DNA from: an uncultured Planctomycetia bacterium | GTDB lineage: Bacteria; Omnitrophota; Gorgyraeia; JABMRG01 | Assembly (NCBI GenBank): GCA_964493115.1 | Contig: CAZBNF010000003.1 | Location: 1 to 40,417 of the forward strand | Length of the DNA: 40,417 nucleotides | Direction: 5' to 3' | Shown: piece after piece, positions 1 through 29,894 of the stretch | How the letters are laid out: each line of letters begins with the position of its first letter | How positions within the stretch are numbered: the first letter of the stretch is position 1 | Translations under genes and position numbers: made by a program | The notes under the pieces: generated by a model | What the model was told of the DNA's origin: nothing | Seen by the model: only the letters and a program-made list of their open reading frames with translations | Databases searched by the model: none

Positions 1-142
1 CGAAATGAACAAAGTGAGTGTAGGGCGCCGATTCCTGCTCGGGGCACCAGTTTTTACAGGAATCGAATAGAGCCCTGTTTTGAAATGCGATGAGTACCTG
101 CCTACCGGCTTTGGTCGCATCATCAGGATAAATTCGGCCTAT

Positions 143-178
143 ACCCCCATGCTTTCTTGCGAAAGCAAGAATGGGGGT
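143..178. repeat. Hairpin repeat, CCCCCATG-core family, copy 1 (core only)
   Basis: The sequence is A CCCCCAT GCTTTC TTGC GAAAGC AAGA ATGGGGG T. The same core recurs at 29821-29854 with a compensatory change in the inner stem (GCTTTC/GAAAGC versus GTTTTC/GAAAAC). Confidence 0.7.
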
Positions 179-188
179 GGCCTCATTT

Positions 189-226
189 AAAAGCCAAATG
201 TGCTGCTTCAGCAAAGGCAAAAGCGG
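189..226 (+). repeat. Half copy (3' arm only) of the ~100-nt structured repeat family
   Basis: AAAAGCCAAATGTGCTGCTTCAGCAAAGGCAAAAGCGG aligns with the right half of the copies at 9766, 17058 and 22659 (AAAAGCCAAATCGCTGCTCTGACAAAGGCATGG). No matching left arm is present upstream. Confidence 0.5.
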
Positions 227-259
227 CTGCTTACGAGTCAGTATGCTTTCTTTTTATAA

Positions 260-2052: not shown

Positions 2053-3356
2053 TAGTGGGCAAAAAAACGAAATTCAAAAAGAAATTATTCCAGTTCTTAA
2101 AACCCTTTAAGTGGTTTTATCCCGGCATGGGGGTAAAACGCTGGCTGTTCCTTTCATTTATAGGAGTTATTTTTATAGTAGCGGGCGGGCAGTTTCTTTC
2201 GGGCCCAACAGCCCTTTTTAGAGTAGTTGGTATCGCATATATGTTCATTGGTATAGTCGTTATAGCTCTTGGGATAAAACGGGTTATGTTTACCTTTCTG
2301 GGAGTTATATTACCTGATAGGCAGGAAGAGCTTGTAGATCTTTTGTATCAGAAAAAACATCTTGAGCGAGGGCTGAAGATAGTTGCAATAGGGGGAGGCA
2401 CAGGATTGTCCGCACTCCTACAGGGTTTAAAACAGTATTCAAGCAACCTTACGGCTATTGTTACTGTGGCTGATGATGGAGGATCATCAGGCAAACTTAG
2501 AGAAGATTTTAATATTCTGCCGCCAGGCGATATTAGAAACTGTCTTGTAGCCCTTGCCGATACCAGCCCATTAATGGAGGAACTTTTTCAGTATCGGTTT
2601 GAGGGTGAATCAACATTAGGGGGCCATAGTTTTGGCAATATATTTATATTGGCTCTTTCAAGGGTAACAAAAGGTTTCGAAGAAGCGGTCCAGGCAGCAA
2701 GCAAGATACTCGCGATAAGGGGGTGTGTTCTTCCTTCTACTTTAACCAAGGTAAGATTAGTGGCTGATTTAGAAGATGGTTCTACGACATCAGGCGAATC
2801 AAATATAACAAAAAGAAAAAATAAGAGCCCAATTAAAAGGCTATATCTTGAGCCCGCAGATTGCCAGCCTACAACAAGCGCAGTGGCGGCAATAGCTAAT
2901 GCCGATGCTATTGTATTAGGCCCAGGAAGTCTCTATACCAGCATAATGCCCAATCTTTTGATAGATTCTATAGCAGAAGCGATAAACAGCTCGCCTGCTA
3001 TCAAGCTGTATGTGTGTAATGTTATGACTCAGCCAGGAGAGACAAACGGTTATAAATCAAGTGATCATATAAAGGTTTTATACGCCAATACAAAATTAAA
3101 ACGCATAGATTATGCGGTTATAAATAATTCCAATATACCAAAGCCTCTTGAACAACGGTACATGTCAGAAAGCGCGTATCAGGTAGAAGCTGATTTAGAC
3201 CAGATCAAGAAAATAGGCGTAATTCCTATAGAAGGTAGTTTTATAACTGTAAATGAGATAGAAAATAAAGAATATTTAAGGCATAATCCCAGAAGGCTCG
3301 CGAAGTCAATTATAGATATTATATCTATAGCAAAATCAGAAGCAGCGCATCGATAG
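2049..3356 (+). CDS. yvcK: YvcK/CofD-family gluconeogenesis-factor-like protein with an N-terminal membrane anchor
   Basis: IVAIGGGTGLSALLQGLKQYSSNLTAIVTVADDGGSSGKLREDFNILPPGDIRNCLVALAD is the UPF0052/YvcK core. The first ~100 aa contain two hydrophobic helices. The TTG start overlaps the ptsN stop, so the exact start is uncertain. Confidence 0.8.
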   Translation: MIVGKKTKFKKKLFQFLKPFKWFYPGMGVKRWLFLSFIGVIFIVAGGQFLSGPTALFRVVGIAYMFIGIVVIALGIKRVMFTFLGVILPDRQEELVDLLYQKKHLERGLKIVAIGGGTGLSALLQGLKQYSSNLTAIVTVADDGGSSGKLREDFNILPPGDIRNCLVALADTSPLMEELFQYRFEGESTLGGHSFGNIFILALSRVTKGFEEAVQAASKILAIRGCVLPSTLTKVRLVADLEDGSTTSGESNITKRKNKSPIKRLYLEPADCQPTTSAVAAIANADAIVLGPGSLYTSIMPNLLIDSIAEAINSSPAIKLYVCNVMTQPGETNGYKSSDHIKVLYANTKLKRIDYAVINNSNIPKPLEQRYMSESAYQVEADLDQIKKIGVIPIEGSFITVNEIENKEYLRHNPRRLAKSIIDIISIAKSEAAHR

Positions 3357-3385
3357 CTCATGCAGAACTTAATCAACGCAAAAAA

Positions 3386-3676
3386 ATGACACACAAGACG
3401 ATAAAAAAAGATGTAGTAATAAGAAGTAGGCAGGGTTTGCACGCCAGGCCCGCCGCGCTTTTTGTGCAGATTGCCAATAAGTTTGACAGTGATATATCCA
3501 TCATAAAAGATGGTGAAGAGGTGAATGGCAAGTCTATAATGGGCATACTTATGCTGGCGGCTGAACAAGGTACTAAAATATGTTTAAAGGCAACAGGGTC
3601 AGATGCTGAAGATGCTATCGCCCAACTCGAAAAGATATTAATCGAAGATAGGGATGATTTATCTAATTTGAAATAA
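3386..3676 (+). CDS. ptsH: Phosphocarrier protein HPr/NPr
   Basis: [11 protein letters not shown] contains the active-site His, [13 protein letters not shown] matches the Ser46-region motif, and the length is 96 aa. Confidence 0.9.
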
Positions 3677-3705
3677 GCTTGAGGCGCAAAAGAAAGGCAT
3701 GTAAG

Positions 3706-5442
3706 ATGTTTAAGGGAATTTCCGCATCACCGGGTGTAGCTATAGGTAAAGCGTTTCTTTATAATAGTGAAGATATCAGGGTCCCAAAGATAAAACTTAA
3801 GCTTTCCGAAATACCCCATGAGATAGCCCGTTTTGAAGAGGCACTTATAAAAACTCGTTCTGAGCTTATAACCATACGTAACAATATTTCCTCAGAGATG
3901 GGCACAAAGCACGGGGAGATATTCAATGCCCATCTTCTTGTGCTTGAAGACAGTATGATAATAGATGAGGTGGTTAGCCGCCTGAGAAAGCAGAAATATA
4001 ATGTTGAATATGTGTTTGAGGATGTTCTAAAAAAATATGTAACAGCATTCCAAAAGATGGATGATGAATATTTAAGAGAACGTATAACCGACATAGAAGA
4101 TGTCGGAAAAAGGCTCTTAAGAAATCTTCTTGGAAAGAAAAAGCAAACACTGCTCGATATACCGCCTGAGTCCATAGTAGTTGCTTATGACCTAGCTCCA
4201 AGTGATACAGCCACAATGCACAGAAAGCACATACTAGGGTTTGTAACAGACATAGGGGGTAAGACATCCCACACTGTTATTATGGCTAAATCGCTTGAGA
4301 TCCCTGCTGTTGTAGGCCTTGAAAACATCACAGCAAATGTCAAGAGCGGCGATATCCTTATTATAGACGGTACAACAGGCAATGTTTATTTAAATCCAGA
4401 CAGAGCCACTATAGCCCAATATTTAAAGGAACAGAAAAAACTTTTAAAATTTGATAAAGACCTGCAGGAGATCAAATTTTTACCTGCCGAGACAAAAGAT
4501 GGCCACAGGGTTGAGCTGGGCGCTAATATAGAACTTCCGGATGAAATACCCGGTGTCCTTTCGCATGGTGCTGAAGGCATAGGTCTTTATAGGACAGAAT
4601 ATTTTTATATGAATCGTGTGGGCCTGCCAACAGAGGAAGAGCATTACCAGGCTTATAAGTCTGTGGTTGAGAATATAAAACCCAATGCGTTGACAATCAG
4701 AAGCCTTGATTTAGGCGGGGATAAGTTTCTTTCGCAGCTTGATGTACCAAAGGAGATGAACCCTTTCCTGGGCTGGCGCGCTATACGCTTAAGCCTTGCA
4801 AACCCTGAAATTTTTAAGACACAGCTTAGAGCTATATTGCGTGCGTCCGCGCATGGTAAGGTAAGGTTGATGTATCCTATGATATCAGGCGTAGAAGAAC
4901 TTGAAGCGGCTAATAAATGCTTGGAAGAAGCCAGGCAGGAGCTGAAGGCAAGAAAGATTCCTTTTGGCCGAAATATGGAAGTAGGCGTAATGATAGAGGT
5001 GCCGTCAGCGGCCCTTATTGCTGATATACTTGCAAGCAGAGTGGATTTTTTCAGCATAGGGACAAATGACCTTATACAATATGCTCTGGCAGTAGACAGG
5101 GTAAATGAAAAGATCGCTTATCTTTATGAACCCGCGCACCCTGCGGTGCTGCGTCTTTTAAAGAACGTAATAGATGCCGGGCACGCTAAGGGCATTTGGG
5201 TTGGAATGTGCGGTGAAATGGCTGGCGAACCAAAGTTTGCACCATTATTATTAGGCTTAGGTCTGGACGAATTCAGTGTTCCTGCCCCTTATCTTTTAAG
5301 AATAAAAAAAATCATACGTTCCGTAAGCTATGAAGATGCCAAAGACATGGTTCAACAGGCGCTTGGGCTTGCAACAGGCAAGGAAGTAGAAGCGCTGGTA
5401 TCAAAACGATTTAAAGATATAGTCTATGAGGTTATTGAGTGA
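3706..5442 (+). CDS. ptsI: Phosphoenolpyruvate-protein phosphotransferase (PTS Enzyme I)
   Basis: The N-terminus is [37 protein letters not shown] carries the catalytic His, and the C-terminal PEP-utilising TIM-barrel motifs [11 protein letters not shown] and [12 protein letters not shown] are present. The start is trimmed from 3679 to ATG 3706. Confidence 0.92.
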
Positions 5443-6176
5443 TGAAGGCGATAATATTAGCGGCGGGATATGCTACAAGGCTTTGGCCTCTTACGCTTGA
5501 TAGGCCTAAACCGCTTTTACATATAGGTAAAAGGCCGATGATAGAGCATATCATAAAGAGGTTAAACAAAATAAATGGTTTAACCCAAATACATGTTGTC
5601 TCTAATACAAAATTTGTCGACGCGTTTGTTCAGTGGGAAAGCCAGTATAAGGGCCCTAAAAAAATATTTATAACAGATGACGGCATGAAGTCGCTGGATG
5701 AGAGAAGGGGTTCTATAGGCGATATTCTTTTCGCAATAGAGAAAAGAAAGATAAATACCGATACCATTGTTGTAGCAGGGGATAATATATTTGATTTTGA
5801 TTTAAATGGTTTCATAAAAAATGCTAGCGCAAATTCACAAAGCGCATCAATAGGCCTTTTTGATATAAAAGACAGGAAGCTTGCAAAAGAATATGGCATA
5901 GTAGCTATTAATAAAGATCTGACTATAGCCTCTTTTGAAGAAAAGCCATCAAAGCCAAAATCTACACTTGCCGCCATGTGCCTTTACTATTTTCCGAAAG
6001 ATAAAATCAGGTTGCTCAGAAAGTATAAGGCAGATGGAAACCCTTTGGATTTAGCAGGGTCTTTTATAAAATGGCTTTCATCGAGGGAGAGCGTTTATGG
6101 GCATGTGTTTAAGGGTAAGTGGCTTGATATCGGGGATAAGAAGTCTTTGAAAAAGGCGCAAACGATGAAGTGGTAA
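5439..6176 (+). CDS. Sugar-phosphate nucleotidyltransferase family protein
   Basis: The N-terminal motif [22 protein letters not shown] is the NTP_transferase G-rich loop. The sugar specificity is not determinable. Confidence 0.7.
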
Positions 6177-6194
6177 AAAAAAGGAGAAGATAAA

Positions 6195-7340
6195 GTGAAG
6201 AGAGAAAAGCACCTATTTACATCAGAGTCAGTGACAGAAGGACACCCAGATAAGATATGTGATCAGATATCAGACGCTATCCTAGATGCTATATATGATA
6301 ACGACCCTAACGGCAGGGTTGCATGCGAAACAATGGTTACAACAGGCCTGGCAATTGTAGCAGGCGAGATTACAACATCCTGTTATGTCGATATACCCAA
6401 GATTGTGCGCAAGACCATAAAAGGTATAGGTTATACAGATGCTGCCTATGGCTTTGATTATCATACATGCGGAGTTATCACTGCTGTTCAGGGGCAATCT
6501 CCTGACATAGCATTAGGTGTTGATACAGGAGGCGCGGGCGATCAGGGCATGATGTTTGGCTATGCCACAGATGAGACAAAAGAGATGATGCCTTTGCCTA
6601 TAAGTTTGGCGCATAAACTTACCCGAAGGCTTGCTGAGGTACGCAAAAAGGATATTTTAAAGTACTTAAGGCCTGACGGTAAAAGTCAGGTCACCATTGA
6701 ATATGATGAAAAAGGCCCTAAAAGAATAGATACGATAGTAATAAGCGCTCATCATGACCGCAAGACCAAAATGCAGCAGATAAAAAGGGATATTAAAAAA
6801 CTTGTCATAGATTTTGTCGTTCCTAAAAATATGATAGACAAAAATACGCTTATATATATAAATCCAACCGGCAGGTTTGAAGTGGGTGGCCCGCAGGGGG
6901 ATACTGGTGTTACGGGTAGGAAGATAATAGTTGATACCTATGGAGGTGTAGGCAGCCACGGAGGCGGGGCTTTTTCAGGAAAAGACCCAAGCAAGGTGGA
7001 CCGCTCAGCTTCGTATATGGCGCGTTATATGGCAAAGAATATTGTTGCCGCCAAATTAGCGAGAAAATGTGAAATACAAATTGCCTATGCAATAGGCGTT
7101 GCAGAACCTGTGAGCCTTAATGTAAATGCTAATGGCACGGGGAAAATCAGCAATCAAAAGCTGCAGAAGCTTTTGTGGGAAAACTTTGATCTTACCCCGA
7201 GAGGTATTATAGACGGGCTAAGATTAAGAAGGCCGATTTATAAAGAAACAGCGGCCTATGGACACTTTGGCAGGCCTTCTTTTACTTGGGAGGATACGGA
7301 TAAAGCGGTCCTGTTGGCAGAGAAAGCCAAGAGGATTTAA
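6195..7340 (+). CDS. metK: S-adenosylmethionine synthetase
   Basis: Supported by [36 protein letters not shown] and [20 protein letters not shown] start with GGAG upstream. Confidence 0.95.
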
Positions 7341-8634: not shown

Positions 8635-9716
8635 GAATAGACGATTATCTTAAACAGATGGATGAAAGGCATGCGTCTGATTTATATTTTAAGGTGGGAA
8701 GCACGCCTTATTTAAGAATAGATGATAACCTGGTGCCTGCGGCCAAAGAGAAACTTGAAATATCCGACCTTGACAGCATAATAGAATCGGTTTTAACAGG
8801 CGAACAAAAAAGGCATTTTGAGCTTACTAAAGAACTTGACGGAGCCTATAGTATTCCCGGATTAGGCAGGTTTCGTTTTAATGTATATGTACAGCGCTCA
8901 ACCAAGGCAATAACGTTTCGTTCCATCAAAAAAGAGATACCATCTTTTGCGGAACTTAATCTGCCTGTTGATATTTTACAGAATCTTTCATCACAAGGAA
9001 GAGGGCTTGTCCTCGTTACCGGGTATGCAGGAAGCGGTAAATCAACAACAATAGCCTCAATTGTAGATTATATAAATAAGAATTTTAGCAGGCACATAAT
9101 AACAATAGAAGACCCTATAGAGTTTGTATATACTGATAATAAATCAATAATCTCGCAGAGAGAGGTAGGCTCTGATACAATGGACTTTGACAGTGCCCTT
9201 AGGCACATAATAAGGCAAAGCCCGGATACTATAGTGATAGGCGAAATGCGCGATGCCGCTACTATGCAGACGGCTATTATGGCAGCTGAGACAGGGCATC
9301 TGGTTTTAAGCACCCTGCATACAGTGGATGCTACGCAAACAGTAGATAGGATCATAAATTTTTTTCCTGCGCACACCCATAGCCAGATAAGGATGCAGTT
9401 AAGCGAGTTATTAAAAGGTATTATATCCATGAGGCTTGTGCCGAGATCCGATGAACCCGGCAGGGTGCCTGCGTGCGAGATAATGGTGTCAACGCCTACT
9501 ATAAAAAAATATATAGCAGAAGGGAAAACCAATCAGCTCATGCCTTTAATAGAAGAGGGTAAACTTTTTGGCATGCGTTCTTTTAATCAGTCTCTTGCCG
9601 GATGGCTTAAAAGCGCTGTTATAAACAAAGAAACAGCGTTAAATTATGCTTCTAATCCTGATGAGCTGGCCCTTAAGCTTAAGGATATTCTATCCGGCAA
9701 CGGAAATCGCGCTTGA
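8631..9716 (+). CDS. PilT/PilU-family type IV pilus retraction ATPase (paralog 1)
   Basis: [18 protein letters not shown] is present. Walker A is [10 protein letters not shown]. The Asp box/Walker B is ITIEDPIEF...[10 protein letters not shown], and the His box is [10 protein letters not shown]. Confidence 0.85.
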
Positions 9717-9765: not shown

Positions 9766-9860
9766 CTTCCATGCCCTTGTCTCCGCAGCGATGGTATTTT
9801 TGCATAGATTGAAATCAAGGCAAAAAAAGCCAAATCGCTGCTCTGACAAAGGCATGGAAG
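9766..9860 (+). repeat. ~100-nt structured intergenic repeat, copy A
   Basis: Sequence: CTTCCATGCCCTTGTC TCC GCAGCGAT GG TATTTTTGC [ATAGATTGAAATCAAG] GCAAAAAAA GCCAA ATCGCTGC TCT GACAAAGGCATGGAAG. About 30 bp of pairing are arranged in four stacked stems. Confidence 0.85.
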
Positions 9861-12012: not shown

Positions 12013-14106
12013 ATGATAGAACGTATGATGATGCTTGTTATTCAGCTTGGATTGATAATATTTGCCGCGCGTATAGGCGGATTGATATTTGAGCGACTTC
12101 GTATGCCGGCGATTATTGGGGAAATAACGGCTGGTATTATCATAGGGCCATATCTTTTAGGAGGCGTTAATATACCGGGGCTTGGACAGTCCTTGTTTAC
12201 TGTATATGGAGATTTTCCTATATCTTTTGAGTTATATGGCTTTACTACCGTTGCTTCTATAGTGCTTCTTTTTATAGTAGGCCTTGAAACAGATCTTGAG
12301 ATGTTTATGAAATACTCGCTAGTAGGGTCATTAGTTGGCATAGGAGGGGTAGTCGTATCGTTTATATTTGGCAACCTTACAGCTGTTTTTCTTTCAAAAT
12401 ATCTTTTTGGCGTTCAGTACGGATTTTCGCATCCGGTAAGTTTATTTTTAGGCGTAATATCAACAGCTACATCAGTTGGCATAACGGCGCGCATATTATC
12501 TGAAAAGAAAAAAATGCAGTCCCCTGAAGGAGTGACTATCATATCAGGCGCTGTTATTGATGATATATTAGGTATAATCGCCTTGGCTATTGTAATAGGA
12601 ATAGCAAAAAGCGGGCATTTCGAATGGCATAAGGTCACAGGTATTGCCATAAAATCAATTCTTATATGGATGGGTTTTACGTTAACCGGCATATTCTTCT
12701 CAAAGCATATCAGCCTGTTCTTAAAGAAATTTAAAGATACAACTACTATAACTGTGATGAGTCTTGGGATGGCTCTTATTCTTGCAGGAATTTTTGAAAA
12801 GGCCGGGCTAGCCATGATTATAGGGGCCTATGTTATGGGGCTGTCTTTATCAAGGACAGATTTGGATTACGCTATACAGGAAAAACTCTCAACCATACAT
12901 AGATTTTTTGTGCCGATATTTTTCTGTGTAATGGGGATGATGGTTGATCTTTCGACGCTGACCTCATTGCATGTAATATTTTTTGGCCTTGTTTATACAG
13001 TGGCAGGCATTATTGGAAAGATAATAGGTTGTGGTTTACCGGCTCTGTTTTTAAATTTTAATGCCAGAGGTGCTTTGCGCGTAGGGCTTGGCATGACTCC
13101 GCGCGGGGAGGTAACACTTCTTATAGCGAGCATAGGCTTAACCGCAGGCATTCTTGGCCAGGAGGCTATTGGGGCCATAGTTATGATGACTATAATAACA
13201 GCACTTATAGCCCCCGCCATGCTTTCAGCTTCTCTAAAATCCGATAAACCTGTTCTAAAAAAACCAAAGCCTGTGAGAGACAAAACCAAAAATATCAGGT
13301 TTGAAATGCCCACGCCTGATACTTCAGAATTGATATTAAGTAAAATAGTTACAGCGTTCAATAACGAAGGCTTCTTTGTGCATAGGCTTGATACGGACCA
13401 AAGAGAAGTAAAATTGTTTCAGATAAGAAAAGATCAGGCATTTATAGTTATGAGGGCATCTTACGAATTTATAGAATTTGATTGCAAGCATGAAGATAGC
13501 ATTTTTATAAATACTCTTATATATGAGGTTATTGGTGATTTGGAAAATACTATGCATCAACTTCAGACGCTCATAGACAGCAGATCGATGGGCAAAAAGA
13601 TATTTATGGATCAACCGGTTAAGGTATCGTCAAATAATAAAATGGTAGGAAGGATATACCCTAATGCTGTTAAAGTAAATTTAACAGCAACGGATAAAAA
13701 AGCCGTTATAGAAGAGATGGTAGAGGTTGTTATAGCGTCAGGACAGCTTAAGGGAGATAAAAAAACAGATGTCCTTAAAGCCATCATGGAGCGGGAAGAG
13801 ACAATGTCCACTGGTATGCAATATGGTATAGCTATGCCTCATGCGAAAACAGACGCTGTAGGCAATATAATATGCGCTTTAGGCATAAAAAGAGAAGGCA
13901 TTGACTTCAAATCCTTAGATGGTGAAACATCTAAGATATTTGTAATGATACTATCACCAAGAGACGGTACAGGTCCGCACATAAGGCTCATGGCTGATAT
14001 AAGCCAGATTCTTACGGATGCCAATTTTAGACAGCGACTTTTAAGCGCCAAGGACGATAAAGAGGCCTTTGCTATTTTTACCCAGAGCAGCGTTTTAAAA
14101 GCTTAA
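12013..14106 (+). CDS. CPA2-type cation:proton antiporter fused to a C-terminal PTS EIIA (Ntr-type) domain
   Basis: The first ~400 aa are polytopic membrane sequence, Kef/Na_H-exchanger-like (GEITAGIIIGPYLLG, VGLETDL). The last ~150 aa are an EIIA domain with GIAMPHAKT and ILSPRDGTGPHIRLMADISQIL, which parallels PtsN at 1591. Confidence 0.8.
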   Translation: MIERMMMLVIQLGLIIFAARIGGLIFERLRMPAIIGEITAGIIIGPYLLGGVNIPGLGQSLFTVYGDFPISFELYGFTTVASIVLLFIVGLETDLEMFMKYSLVGSLVGIGGVVVSFIFGNLTAVFLSKYLFGVQYGFSHPVSLFLGVISTATSVGITARILSEKKKMQSPEGVTIISGAVIDDILGIIALAIVIGIAKSGHFEWHKVTGIAIKSILIWMGFTLTGIFFSKHISLFLKKFKDTTTITVMSLGMALILAGIFEKAGLAMIIGAYVMGLSLSRTDLDYAIQEKLSTIHRFFVPIFFCVMGMMVDLSTLTSLHVIFFGLVYTVAGIIGKIIGCGLPALFLNFNARGALRVGLGMTPRGEVTLLIASIGLTAGILGQEAIGAIVMMTIITALIAPAMLSASLKSDKPVLKKPKPVRDKTKNIRFEMPTPDTSELILSKIVTAFNNEGFFVHRLDTDQREVKLFQIRKDQAFIVMRASYEFIEFDCKHEDSIFINTLIYEVIGDLENTMHQLQTLIDSRSMGKKIFMDQPVKVSSNNKMVGRIYPNAVKVNLTATDKKAVIEEMVEVVIASGQLKGDKKTDVLKAIMEREETMSTGMQYGIAMPHAKTDAVGNIICALGIKREGIDFKSLDGETSKIFVMILSPRDGTGPHIRLMADISQILTDANFRQRLLSAKDDKEAFAIFTQSSVLKA

Positions 14107-17057: not shown

Positions 17058-17161
17058 ATAGCGTTTATACCTTTGCCTCCACAGCGATGGTATTTTTGCA
17101 TATATTTAAAATCAAGGCAAAAAAAGCCAAATCGCTGCTTCGGCAAATGTATAAACGCTAT
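17058..17161 (+). repeat. ~100-nt structured intergenic repeat, copy B
   Basis: Sequence: ATAGCGTTTATACCTTTGCC TCC ACAGCGAT GG TATTTTTGC [ATATATTTAAAATCAAG] GCAAAAAAA GCCAA ATCGCTGC TTC GGCAAATGTATAAACGCTAT. The outer arms differ from copy A but still pair with each other. Confidence 0.85.
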
Positions 17162-22658: not shown

Positions 22659-22761
22659 AATCTTCCGTGCCTTTACTTTCGCAGCGATGGTATTTTTGCG
22701 TATTATTTGAAATCAGGGCAAAAAAAGCCGAATCGCTGCTCCAGCAAAGGCGCGGAAGATT
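22659..22761 (+). repeat. ~100-nt structured intergenic repeat, copy C
   Basis: Sequence: AATCTTCCGTGCCTTTACT TTC GCAGCGAT GG TATTTTTGC [GTATTATTTGAAATCAGG] GCAAAAAAA GCCGA ATCGCTGC TCC AGCAAAGGCGCGGAAGATT. It starts 3 nt after the upstream stop codon. Confidence 0.85.
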
Positions 22762-22857
22762 TTTTCATAAGGATGCTTCGATAGTTTTTATTTTTTCTTT
22801 ACTTACTATAATACTCTATGTTATAATAAATTTTCCTTAAACCCCATATCGTGCACA

Positions 22858-25669: not shown

Positions 25670-27132
25670 AGTTAATATATGAAAAAAGCGTAATATCAAG
25701 AAAAGGATTTAAACTTCCTCAACCAGATGTACCTCGGCGGGGCAGTATTGACTCTAAGTATGCCCGCAGGCAGGCCCCATGCCTTCCTGAGGTATCTGAG
25801 CTTGATGTTGTCAGGCATTACACAAATCTTTCGCGCATGAATTTCTCAGTGGATAATAATTTCTATCCTCTTGGATCCTGTACCATGAAATATAATCCAA
25901 AATTTGCAGAAAAGATTGCAGGCATGGAAGGGTTCTCTGACCTTCACCCTCTTATGCCGCAGCTATTAGGAGGAGGAAGGCTTTCTCAAGGGGCTTTGGA
26001 GGTTATATATAATACAGAAAAATTGCTATGTGAGATTACGGGCATGGAGGCATTTACAATGCAGCCTCTGGCAGGTGCCCACGGGGAACTCACAGGCATA
26101 ATGCTCATAGCAGCGTATCATAAGAGTAAAGGCCGCCGCAGAAAACATGTTATTGTCCCGGACTCGTCCCATGGCACTAACCCCGCAAGCGCTGCAATAG
26201 CAGGATACGATGTGGTAGTCGTAAAAACAGATAAAGCAGGTTGTATGGATATGGAAAAGTTTAAGGATGCCTTAAACGAAGATACCGCCGCTGTTATGCT
26301 TACATGCCCTAATACGCTTGGCATATTCAATACCAGGATAAAGGAGATTACGGATCTCGCGCATTCAGTGGATGCCCTGGTGTATTATGATGGGGCAAAC
26401 CTTAATGCGATAATGGGCAAGTGCCGTCCGGGAGACATAGGTTTTGATGTTGTGCATCTTAATCTTCACAAGACATTTGCGACGCCACATGGAGGCGGAG
26501 GTCCGGGGGCAGGGCCTGTTGGGGTAAGTGAAAGCTTGGTTGAATTTCTGCCCATATCAAGGGTAATGAAAAGGCCTGCAGGGGCTCTTTATCTTGATTA
26601 TAATAATTCGAAATCAATAGGCTATATTGCGCCTTTTTATGGAAATTTTGGGGTGATATTAAAGGCTTATGCTTATATTCTTTTTCTTGGGCGGGAAGGG
26701 TTGATAGAGGCAAGCGAATATGCGGTACTTAATGCCAACTATTGCCTTGCCCGGCTTAGAGAATATTATGATGTTTCCTATGATAGAAGATGTATGCATG
26801 AGTGTGTATTATCAGCTCAAAGGCAGGCAAAGAAAGGCGTGCGTGCGCTTGATATAGCGAAATATCTCATTGACCAGGGTTTTCATCCTCCAACTATATA
26901 TTTTCCTCTTATCGTAAAAGAGGCGATGATGATAGAGCCTACTGAAACAGAATCAAAAGAGACTCTGGATGAATTTATAGATGCAATGATCGCTGCCGCA
27001 GGATTAGCCCAGGCAGATCCGCAGAGGCTTATGGATGCACCTCTTACAATGCCAATAAAGCGCCTTGACGAGACAAAGGCAGCCCGAGATCTAGACCTCT
27101 GCTGGAAACCCGATTTTATAAAAACTTCTTAG
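25666..27132 (+). CDS. gcvPB: Glycine dehydrogenase (decarboxylating) subunit 2
   Basis: Supported by YPLGSCTMKYNPK and SSHGTNPASA. NLHKTFATPHGGGGPGAGP contains the PLP-binding Lys. Confidence 0.92.
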   Translation: MKLIYEKSVISRKGFKLPQPDVPRRGSIDSKYARRQAPCLPEVSELDVVRHYTNLSRMNFSVDNNFYPLGSCTMKYNPKFAEKIAGMEGFSDLHPLMPQLLGGGRLSQGALEVIYNTEKLLCEITGMEAFTMQPLAGAHGELTGIMLIAAYHKSKGRRRKHVIVPDSSHGTNPASAAIAGYDVVVVKTDKAGCMDMEKFKDALNEDTAAVMLTCPNTLGIFNTRIKEITDLAHSVDALVYYDGANLNAIMGKCRPGDIGFDVVHLNLHKTFATPHGGGGPGAGPVGVSESLVEFLPISRVMKRPAGALYLDYNNSKSIGYIAPFYGNFGVILKAYAYILFLGREGLIEASEYAVLNANYCLARLREYYDVSYDRRCMHECVLSAQRQAKKGVRALDIAKYLIDQGFHPPTIYFPLIVKEAMMIEPTETESKETLDEFIDAMIAAAGLAQADPQRLMDAPLTMPIKRLDETKAARDLDLCWKPDFIKTS

Positions 27133-27178
27133 GAACGGTTCTCGAGCACAAGTACTTGTGCTCGAGAACCGTTCCTAA
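27129..27178. repeat. Perfect 46-50 bp palindrome (AGGAACGGTT outer-arm family, copy 1)
   Basis: TT AGGAACGGTTCTCGAGCACAAGT ACTTGTGCTCGAGAACCGTTCCT AA. It overlaps the gcvPB stop codon. No T-tract follows. Confidence 0.9.
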
Positions 27179-28841: not shown

Positions 28842-29806
28842 AAGTAGTAGTAACAGGAGGCTCAGGATTCATAGGAAGTGCCTTTTTATGGAAACTTAAT
28901 AAAGAAGGCATCAATGACATACTTGTTGTTGATGTAGGCGAGGATAACAGGAATGCCCCTAATATAAGAGACAAAGAAATAACAGGCTATATTGAACGCG
29001 ATAAATTTATTGAACTTGTAGAATCAGATAAGCTCGATAAAAATATAGATATGATAGTCCATTTAGGCGCATGCGCTGATACCACAGAGACCGACAAGGG
29101 GTATCTCAACGATAACAACTATTTATACTCAAAGTCGCTGGCCGAGTGGTCTCTTAAAAATGATAAGCTGTTTTTTTATGCAAGCAGTGCCGCGACATAT
29201 GGCGCAGGAGAGCTTGGTTATTCTGATGAGGATAGGCTTATCCCGTCCCTTAAGCCCTTAAATGAATACGGCAGGTCAAAGCAGCGATTCGATCTGTGGC
29301 TTCTGGAAAACACTCTTACAGAAAGAATAGTCGGGTTTAAATTTTTTAATGTATATGGCCCTAATGAATACCATAAGCAGGATATGAGAAGCATGGTAAA
29401 CAAAGGCTACTATCAGATAAAAGAGTCCGGCAAGCTTAGGCTCTTTAAATCCTACAAACCCGAATATCTGCATGGCGGGCAAAAGAGGGATTTTATATAT
29501 ATAAAAGATGCCCTTGAAGTGATGTGGTATTTTATGAATAATCCGGATAAGAAAGGAATATTCAATGTAGGCACAGGCCGCGCCCATACATGGAATGAGC
29601 TTGCCATTGCCTTGTTTAAGGCCCTTGATAAAGAGCCCAATATAGAGTATTTTGATATGCCGGAAAACATAAAGGACCAATACCAGTATTTTACGCAAGC
29701 AGATCTGTCTAAATTAAGAAGCGCAGGGTGTGGCTATCAGTTCACTGGCATAAATGATGCGGTAAAAGACTATGTCAGCTATCTCGAAAAAGGAGAATAT
29801 CTTTAG
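28838..29806 (+). CDS. hldD: ADP-L-glycero-D-manno-heptose 6-epimerase
   Basis: Supported by VVVTGGSGFIGSAF...INDILVVD, ASSAATYG, VGFKFFNVYGPNEYHK, KRDFIYIKD and YQYFTQADLSKLRSAG. The protein is collinear with E. coli HldD as recalled from memory. Confidence 0.88.
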   Translation: MKVVVTGGSGFIGSAFLWKLNKEGINDILVVDVGEDNRNAPNIRDKEITGYIERDKFIELVESDKLDKNIDMIVHLGACADTTETDKGYLNDNNYLYSKSLAEWSLKNDKLFFYASSAATYGAGELGYSDEDRLIPSLKPLNEYGRSKQRFDLWLLENTLTERIVGFKFFNVYGPNEYHKQDMRSMVNKGYYQIKESGKLRLFKSYKPEYLHGGQKRDFIYIKDALEVMWYFMNNPDKKGIFNVGTGRAHTWNELAIALFKALDKEPNIEYFDMPENIKDQYQYFTQADLSKLRSAGCGYQFTGINDAVKDYVSYLEKGEYL

Positions 29807-29870
29807 GAACGGTTTTTGAGCCCCCATGTTTTCTTGCGAAAACAAAAATGGGGGCTCAAGAACCGTTCCT
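29805..29870. repeat. Composite nested palindrome: AGGAACGGTT outer arms enclosing the CCCCCATG core hairpin
   Basis: AGGAACGGTTTTTGAG CCCCCAT GTTTTC TTGC GAAAAC AAAA ATGGGGG CTCAAGAACCGTTCCT. The outer arms are shared with 27131-27176 and the core is shared with 144-177. Confidence 0.9.
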
Positions 29871-29894
29871 AAAAAAAAGAAAAGAGCTATAAAG

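Follow-up and report, generated by a model that had tools for sequence, protein, structure and literature searches.

A stretch of DNA of 40,417 nucleotides (the window) carries copies of a non-coding, interspersed palindromic repeat family that, with a probability that we put at about 0.7, has spread recently through one uncultured Omnitrophota lineage in the manner of a selfish repeat and is not a regulatory RNA. The family is high in copy number, dispersed, restricted to its lineage and polymorphic for presence and absence. Its copies also decay and rearrange in place: cores have been deleted between short direct repeats, palindromes have been nested at one internal site in either orientation, and cores have been inverted. 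The first-pass annotation of the window had taken compensatory change in the stems as the mark of a selected RNA or cruciform rather than of a recently copied selfish repeat. This conclusion is not supported in view of the lineage restriction, the empty orthologous sites and the 99% identical copies at unrelated loci, as well as the occurrence of copies in either orientation, the indel and inversion polymorphism between strains, and a wobble pattern that does not track the transcribed strand. Covariation in this family needs no selection on RNA.

Results

The three full copies in the window

Three full copies on the + strand had been proposed in the window; all were found on the sequence at the positions listed in Table 1, and all are intergenic. 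The 19-mer of the core has three window matches at no more than three mismatches, against 0.04 expected by chance, and repeat finding within the window returned the same three places without a fourth full copy. Many more copies lie beyond the window, in line with the original description of a dispersed family with a near-invariant core. In copy A, helix 3 is formed by GCAGCGAT (9785-9792) and ATCGCTGC (9834-9841), and helix 4 by TATTTTTGC (9795-9803) and GCAAAAAAA (9820-9828); between the two helices lies a GG/GCC step with a T and an AA unpaired. The TAG stop codon attributed to copy A exists, at 9805-9807 and not at 9804-9806.

Table 1. Features of the palindromic repeat family in the window.
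Feature	Positions	Strand	Content or context	Basis
5'-truncated long variant, right-hand part	108-227	+	module TTTGGTCGCATCATCAGGATAAATTCGGCCTATAC, hairpin 144-177, then CTCATTTAAAAGCCAAAT..GCTGC and right outer arm	
Copy A, full element	9766-9860	+	between two T2SSE/PilT-type ATPase genes	covariance model, 113 bits
Copy A, left outer arm (helices 1-2, variable, covarying)	9766-9781	+	pairs with 9845-9860	
Copy A, core left half (helix 3, bulge, helix 4)	9785-9803	+	GCAGCGAT-GG-TATTTTTGC	
Copy A, apical loop, 16 nt	9804-9819	+	3' half (T/G)AAATCA(A/G)G conserved	
Copy A, core right half	9820-9841	+	GCAAAAAAA-GCC-AA-ATCGCTGC	
Copy A, right outer arm	9845-9860	+		fold
Copy B, full element	17058-17161	+	between a divergent gene pair	covariance model, 121.5 bits
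Copy C, full element	22659-22761	+		covariance model, 120.9 bits

All three window copies form a single long hairpin, with energies of -45.6 to -49.5 kcal/mol and z-scores of -5.8 to -9.1 (copy A: -49.5 kcal/mol, z = -9.1), and the complementary strand folds equally stably. The covariance model of the family, described below, gives the window copies 113 to 121 bits on the + strand versus 53 to 59 bits on the - strand. This difference marks the element as asymmetric, with a polarity. At the gathering score, the Rfam search of the window returned only three tRNAs, and in E-value mode the matches were limited to unspecific long hairpins of the miRNA-precursor type, which fell well short of their thresholds; neither the short nor the long variant of the element matched an Rfam family.

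The neighbors of copy B are a 225-aa gene on the - strand and a class II FBP aldolase gene on the + strand. A radical-SAM gene ends 3 nt upstream of copy C and gcvT starts 96 nt downstream, and copy C alone is followed by TTTTTT. The leader region of the gcvT-H-P operon is mostly taken up by copy C, and upstream of the operon (22762-22857) neither a glycine riboswitch nor a member of another Rfam family came up at the gathering threshold. The window is of metagenomic origin. The identical locus was retrieved from ENA, JGI, and Logan assemblies made independently, and a number of short contigs break off within copy A, as is typical at repeats. Elsewhere in the window, between pfk and lptG, a 697-aa gene (12013-14106) encodes a Na+/H+ exchanger-EIIA fusion that is also found in 'Ca. 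Orphnella occulta'-like contigs (L137, L138; labels of this form designate retrieved loci or contigs) and is missing in the syntenic relatives L136, L139, and L141.

Size, carriers, and anatomy of the family

JGI metagenome contigs were scanned with a pattern of the inner stem, and a covariance model was then built from the copies found. The scan yielded 76 loci with 97 copies (73 distinct) from a handful of samples. The covariance-model search for further copies, which had been suggested in the first pass, returned 98 copies that score more than 89 bits across 0.58 Mb of related metagenome contigs, including some missed by the exact pattern, and merging of orthologous places leaves about 70 distinct intergenic places (72 unique places). 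Among GTDB species representatives, the 18-mer CAGCGATGGTATTTTTGC gave 50 hits, all by chance and none with the right half, and three patterns gave 0 hits in IMG/VR. The host belongs to Omnitrophota; the named sequences that match its PilT best come from 'Candidatus Orphnella occulta' (87%) and from MAGs labelled 'Ca. Omnitrophica/Omnitrophota bacterium'. PMC12281948 lists the name Orphnella occulta Williams et al. 2021. As a separate observation, the chance 18-mer matches in seven Desulfobaccales or 'delta proteobacterium' MAGs (L027, L037, L045, L049, L053, L054, and L057) share one conserved sequence of ~140 nt, GCCGCAGAAAGGCCCGGGGACGACCGCACAAAGGGCAGCGATGGTATTTTTGCACTGCAAACTTGG..., which is unrelated to the family of the window and may be a conserved non-coding element of Desulfobaccales.

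Mean pairwise identity reaches 96% in the core stems versus 65% in the outer arms and 67% in the loop; the AAAT.A columns of the loop are conserved at 90% or above. Helix 4 is invariant in 80 distinct copies, most of which were selected by a pattern that fixes helix 4, so that the conservation of the inner stem is partly imposed; the copies found by the model only share helix 4 too. The outer arms diverge between copies and keep their complementarity within each copy, as had been described for the window. These arms are not arbitrary in sequence and follow a family consensus, ..ATCGTTTATGCCTTTGCC ... GGCAAAGGCATAAACGAT.., with recognizable subfamilies. One arm subfamily, AATCTTCC(A/G)T(G/A)CC, unites copies A and C of the window with L063. 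Beyond TTTATGCC, the stem extends by 2 to 11 bp, varying between copies and running outward into flanking sequence that is unique. In another subfamily (L077, L076, L109, L123, L086, and L133) a non-palindromic 3' tail of ~22 nt, TAACTYTAATAATAAGATTAAA, lies directly 3' of the right arm. A shorter form of the tail, TAGATTAAAAT, was seen in L114, L106, and L070, and a recurring module, CAGCRGYTTGGATATAAAAGCAGCT, is found close by in several loci.

Long variants and nested palindromes

Long variants of 160 to 290 nt (L090 at 1532-1735 and 3534-3737, L097 at 8732-8909, L062 at ~6006-6291, and L072 at 3079-3361) keep the outer arms of the family and the frame GCAGCGATGGTATTTT ... AAAAGCCAAATCGCTGC, and in them the apical TGC-loop-GCA is replaced by 'AAATGAG ... 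CTCATTT' around further hairpin modules. The half copy reported at 189-226 of the window does match the right half of the element; it is actually the right end of such a long variant, truncated on its 5' side and starting at about position 108. When compared with both L090 copies, L062, and L072, this segment matches the right-hand 120 nt of the long form, including the module TTTGGTCGCATCATCAGGATAAATTCGGCCTATAC, and its nested hairpin occupies the position where other copies hold different hairpins. The cargo of L109 is reversed within the same frame, and one and the same locus exists in a 283-nt form (L072) versus a 102-nt form (L087).

Several other palindromes recur in the same DNA. A 34-nt hairpin, CCCCCATGCTTTCTTGCGAAAGCAAGAATGGGGG, is nested in different host palindromes (window 144-177 and 29821-29854; L109 ~1330-1365), and CCTGCCTGCCGGCAGGCAGG, a perfect palindrome of small size, turns up repeatedly in other hairpins' loops in related loci (L062, L070, L090, L097, and L109). 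A second palindromic repeat family, TTAGGAACGGTTCTCGAG ... CTCGAGAACCGTTCCTAA, has copies at 27129-27178 and 29802-29873 of the window, the latter with a hairpin, CCCCCATGTTTTCTTGCGAAAACAAAAATGGGGG, nested in its apex. Each occupies a short spacer that separates genes of the + strand (gcvP/lplA and the following genes), and the model of the main family scores them weakly, at 34 and 18 bits. The intergenic DNA of the lineage is a mosaic of nested palindromes.

Two tRNA-like sequences were also noticed near the start of the window. A sequence resembling a tRNA 3' end, GATTCCTGCTCGGGGCACCA, occurs twice at a distance of ~130 nt, at 27-49 of the window and at 1-33 of L001 (110 nt upstream of the window start), each copy being followed by a similar stretch of ~45 nt, AGTTTTT..GCAGGAATCGAA.AGAGCCCTGTTTTGAAATGCGA.GAGTA. 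This arrangement resembles a duplication of an att-type site at a tRNA gene and lies directly next to the truncated long variant. At 337-361, ATGCCCGCATAGCTCAGTTGATAGA is similar to the 5' part of a tRNA (acceptor and D arm), as at the starts of the tRNAs at 1078 and 1452. ARAGORN called no tRNA at 337-361, and the segment overlaps the start of an ORF at 388-1173 that has no Pfam match.

Gain, loss, and placement of copies

The gene order around copy A is kept in syntenic Omnitrophota relatives whose PilT is 95, 94, 93, 89, 87, and 86% identical, and the site of copy A is empty in them: the spacer between the ATPase genes measures 174 nt including copy A in the window versus 16 to 51 nt, or an unrelated 157 nt, in the six relatives. 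Copy B is missing at the orthologous site in four relatives, and 118 kb of the relatives' DNA contains no covariance-model hit at E<=1. Presence/absence differences also exist within the lineage (L103 4063-4165 versus L106, L103 762-864 versus L114, and L130 5783-5885 versus L101). Moreover, L114 3723-3842 and L123 9758-9877 are 99% identical over the whole element and have unrelated flanks, indicating that the sequence was recently copied between loci.

No direct repeat of 2 to 8 nt in a consistent register exceeded shuffled controls as a target-site duplication, and no target motif was found. The exception in this test is a set of self-complementary end dinucleotides, AT..AT in 24 of the 72 places, and one empty/filled pair permits an ambiguous 7-nt direct repeat (CGTTTAT/CGTCTAT).

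The statement that all copies share the + orientation is right for the window only, and the wider family includes copies in either orientation relative to genes. Of the copies between co-directional genes, 29 are co-oriented and 20 opposed (p=0.25); a further seven are flanked by divergent genes, and convergent gene pairs have none. With genes called by a simple ORF heuristic, none of the 72 places falls within a called gene. At the median, a copy lies 40 nt past the preceding stop codon and 105 nt ahead of the following start codon, and 35 of 49 copies are nearer the stop than the start (p=0.004), the figures being equal in both orientations. A host function, and not tolerance, could lie behind this preference for sites close downstream of stop codons.

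Rearrangement in place

At L060 only the arms are retained, the core having gone between TCG repeats, and the full element stands in L115 and L077. The arms-only hairpin was considered as an unoccupied target of a mobile core; its loop, GCTGC, is a core remnant, hence a deletion. At one locus, the flanks and both arms of L068, L102, L084, and L122 align contiguously, and the central segment of L122 is entirely reverse-complemented; L122 versus L084 is a clean case of a core inverted in situ between the inverted arms. The counterpart of copy B in the near-identical strain L070 (flanks 95 to 98% identical) has the opposite orientation and different arms, with 316 nt of other hairpin modules beside it; it was not counted as a clean inversion because the immediate flanks differ. 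Between the orthologous L072 and L100, the element is 96% identical versus 78 to 85% for the flanking coding DNA, an excess conservation that could be due to constraint or to homogenization.

Covariation and strand asymmetry

Covariation was computed on the model alignment (98 rows, 80 distinct), and the covariation of the stems claimed from the window copies is statistically supported. Standard pairs occupy 95.1% of the cells, versus 85.1±0.3 in shuffles and 41 to 49% when the partners are slid by 1 to 3 columns. Changes on both sides occur in 22 of 33 pairs, and double-change cells number 285 versus 67±7 in shuffles. All 13 pairs of the outer helix, all 3 of helix 2, and 5 of the 6 of helix 3 covary (e.g., GCAGAAAT/ATTTCTGC and GCAGCAAT/ATTGCTGC). 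Clearly orthologous copies from different strains, at a per-site divergence of 4.5%, show 9 pairs changed on both sides versus 1.1 expected, with Watson-Crick pairing kept in 7 of these 9 (P about 3e-6); L135 and L082 are not orthologous pairs and were left out of this count.

If the stems were under selection in an mRNA, tolerance of G·U would be expected on whichever strand is transcribed. On the + strand of the element, A·C mismatches number 67 versus 30 G·U (67 unique places, the invariant U·G excluded), with A·C exceeding G·U in 16 columns and the reverse in 4. The ratio is the same in either gene orientation (19 versus 10 in copies co-oriented with genes, 22 versus 9 in opposed copies; Fisher p=0.78), and a wobble signature linked to transcription is absent. 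These counts, which are non-independent through shared ancestry, hint at an asymmetry intrinsic to the element, with G·T tolerated on its - strand. T-runs come after 3 of the 49 hairpins versus 5 of 49 on the control side, and a reading as intrinsic terminators was rejected. A reading as promoters was likewise rejected, 47 promoter-like sites versus 42 expected being no enrichment.

Discussion

A model for the spread and upkeep of the family

We propose that the family spreads as a non-autonomous element, the conserved asymmetric central hairpin being the part that would be recognized by a trans-acting enzyme. The substrate of such an enzyme would probably be a folded single strand, like the IS200/IS605 ends and REP sequences that HUH/Y1 enzymes act on. 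Complementarity of the arms, their variable length, and the core inversions may mostly be upheld by template switching of replication between the inverted-repeat arms. Selection for the stem during propagation may contribute, selection for a functional RNA would be unnecessary, and any influence on neighbor genes, for instance through a hairpin at the 3' end of the upstream mRNA, would come second.

Template switching at imperfect inverted repeats is known to homogenize and extend the arms and to invert spacers (PMC8604942). It can create compensatory changes in inverted repeats (PMC8794818, PMC8604942), and arm homogenization, extension, and spacer inversion are also described as its products in PMC8794818 and PMC13100816. 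Compensatory changes, outward extension of the stem, and spacer inversion are thus three products of template switching, and covariation does not require selection on RNA. Arm homogenization, outward extension, and spacer inversion are all found in the family, which in this respect resembles quasipalindrome evolution. Unlike an element family, however, template switching is a mutational process, and it explains the upkeep of pairing and not the spread to new loci.

Regarding the enzyme, a motif regex and tblastn with IS608/IS200 TnpA queries, a weak test, gave no hit to a Y1/RAYT transposase in the 0.58 Mb. An autonomous IS with the same ends was also not found in the 0.58 Mb of the lineage, the unpaired left and right ends there being only fragments or chance matches. 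The ends of the family are its least conserved part, which counts against a transposon recognized at its termini. A more specific version of the model, which we consider speculative and rather unlikely, is that of a novel structure-defined mobile element or domesticated DNA hairpin in Omnitrophota, in which the fixed core GCAGCGAT-GG-TATTTTTGC / GCAAAAAAA-GCC-AA-ATCGCTGC would be read by a single-stranded DNA enzyme and the flanking stem could be any sequence that pairs. If this is true, the surplus of A·C relative to G·U seen on one strand of the element, whatever the gene orientation, would identify the folding strand.

Relation to known repeat families

The family is, by its architecture, closest to ERIC/IRU, BOX elements, and REP/BIME mosaics, and its behavior is REPIN- or MITE-like. 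The ERIC/IRU elements of enterobacteria are imperfect palindromes of ~127 bp that lie between genes in both orientations and are best conserved at their center (Hulton 1991; Sharples & Lloyd 1990; Wilson & Sharp 2006). The present family likewise consists of long imperfect intergenic hairpins of ~100 to 130 bp in both orientations, with a conserved center and size variants due to internal indels, and it falls in the loose ERIC/BOX class of intergenic imperfect palindromes by likeness of architecture only. Size variants of ERICs are produced by internal deletions and by insertions at fixed internal sites, and TA duplications have been reported for ERICs in Yersinia. The family differs from ERICs in its host phylum, Omnitrophota, and in its far more variable outer arms; no likeness to ERICs was noticed in its sequence, and a TA-type duplication is not detectable in it.

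In REPINs, two highly conserved ends (16-mers overlapping REP palindromes) surround a variable spacer, compensatory changes keep the hairpin, and the folded single strand has been proposed as the substrate (PMC3116915). Like REPINs and the REP/BIME elements of RAYT (TnpA-REP) systems, the family is made of non-coding, extragenic, high-copy hairpins of ~100 nt maintained by compensatory changes; unlike them, it has a conserved center and variable ends, and it lacks the two inverted REP units with conserved ends. BOX elements of Streptococcus pneumoniae are boxA-boxB-boxC mosaics, in which the outer modules pair in a long stem around variable inner modules (Martin 1992, Croucher 2011). The family is a modular intergenic mosaic of the same kind, with a long outer stem around variable inner modules, and differs from BOX in sequence and host as well as in its cargo modules, which are themselves palindromes and occur in either orientation. 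MITEs carry conserved terminal inverted repeats matching a parent IS, together with target-site duplications. Classical MITEs such as Correia/NEMIS and Nezha share with the family the small size, the absence of coding sequence, the multiple intergenic copies, the hairpin, and the presence/absence polymorphism, but the outermost 6 to 10 bp of the family are its most variable part and conserved termini are lacking. Altogether, the family is new and unusual in its architecture of conserved center and variable arms, and it is of a known kind of DNA, the interspersed intergenic palindromic repeats.

Alternative explanations

The first-pass annotation preferred a functional structured RNA, either a 3'-UTR or intercistronic hairpin stabilizing the upstream mRNA or an sRNA, with stems kept by selection on RNA folding. 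The very stable folds, the strong covariation, the position of the copies past stop codons, the conserved loop motif and bulges, and the orthologous copies conserved above their flanks would all agree with this reading. We nevertheless judge it improbable, as close relatives with the same genes in the same order have empty sites and both orientations are common, opposed copies being bound to transcribe the complement of the conserved core. The copies between divergent genes are without an upstream mRNA. The A·C excess irrespective of gene orientation, the lack of excess T-runs or promoter-like sites, and the absence of a matching Rfam family also speak against it.

Equally improbable in our estimation is a host-domesticated DNA site, in which the core would be bound as double-stranded DNA or as a cruciform by a host protein (nucleoid-associated, gyrase, or IHF-like, as in BIMEs) or would act like an uptake signal, orientation being irrelevant. 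Independence of orientation, the near-invariant asymmetric core with its A7 tract, the exclusion from genes, and a mismatch asymmetry belonging to the element itself are what such a site would show. Against it stand the lack of the family in close relatives with the same gene set, the frequency of truncated copies and decay products, and the lack of a candidate binding protein; the reading is, moreover, compatible with a selfish origin.

Integron attC-type sites, or another site-specific recombination array, share the imperfect palindrome, the conserved extrahelical bases, and the location just after ORFs, but this reading is effectively refuted by the genomic context: the copies are scattered in both orientations among housekeeping genes (PTS, metK, ahcY, pilT, pfk, lptFG, fba, and gcvTHP), no cassette array in one orientation and no integrase nearby being found, and their conserved center and variable ends are the reverse of attC, which has R and L boxes at its ends and a variable center. 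Chance similarity or an assembly artefact, for which only the contigs broken within copy A could be invoked, is refuted by the identical locus in independent assemblies, the excess of matches in the window, and the ~70 distinct flanking contexts.

Significance

With the palindromic repeat described here, Omnitrophota, whose known genomes all come from uncultured members, gain one more repeat family. Assemblies of Omnitrophota are broken by repeats of this sort, as seen from the contig ends inside copy A, and the family is usable as a marker for strain typing. It also offers an unusually clear natural case in which compensatory stem changes, stem extension, and spacer inversion are found together at one locus. 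The case is a warning that stems which covary in a repeated inverted repeat do not, on that ground alone, point to a functional RNA. Should there be a cognate enzyme, the bulged core, being conserved, offers a defined substrate to look for.
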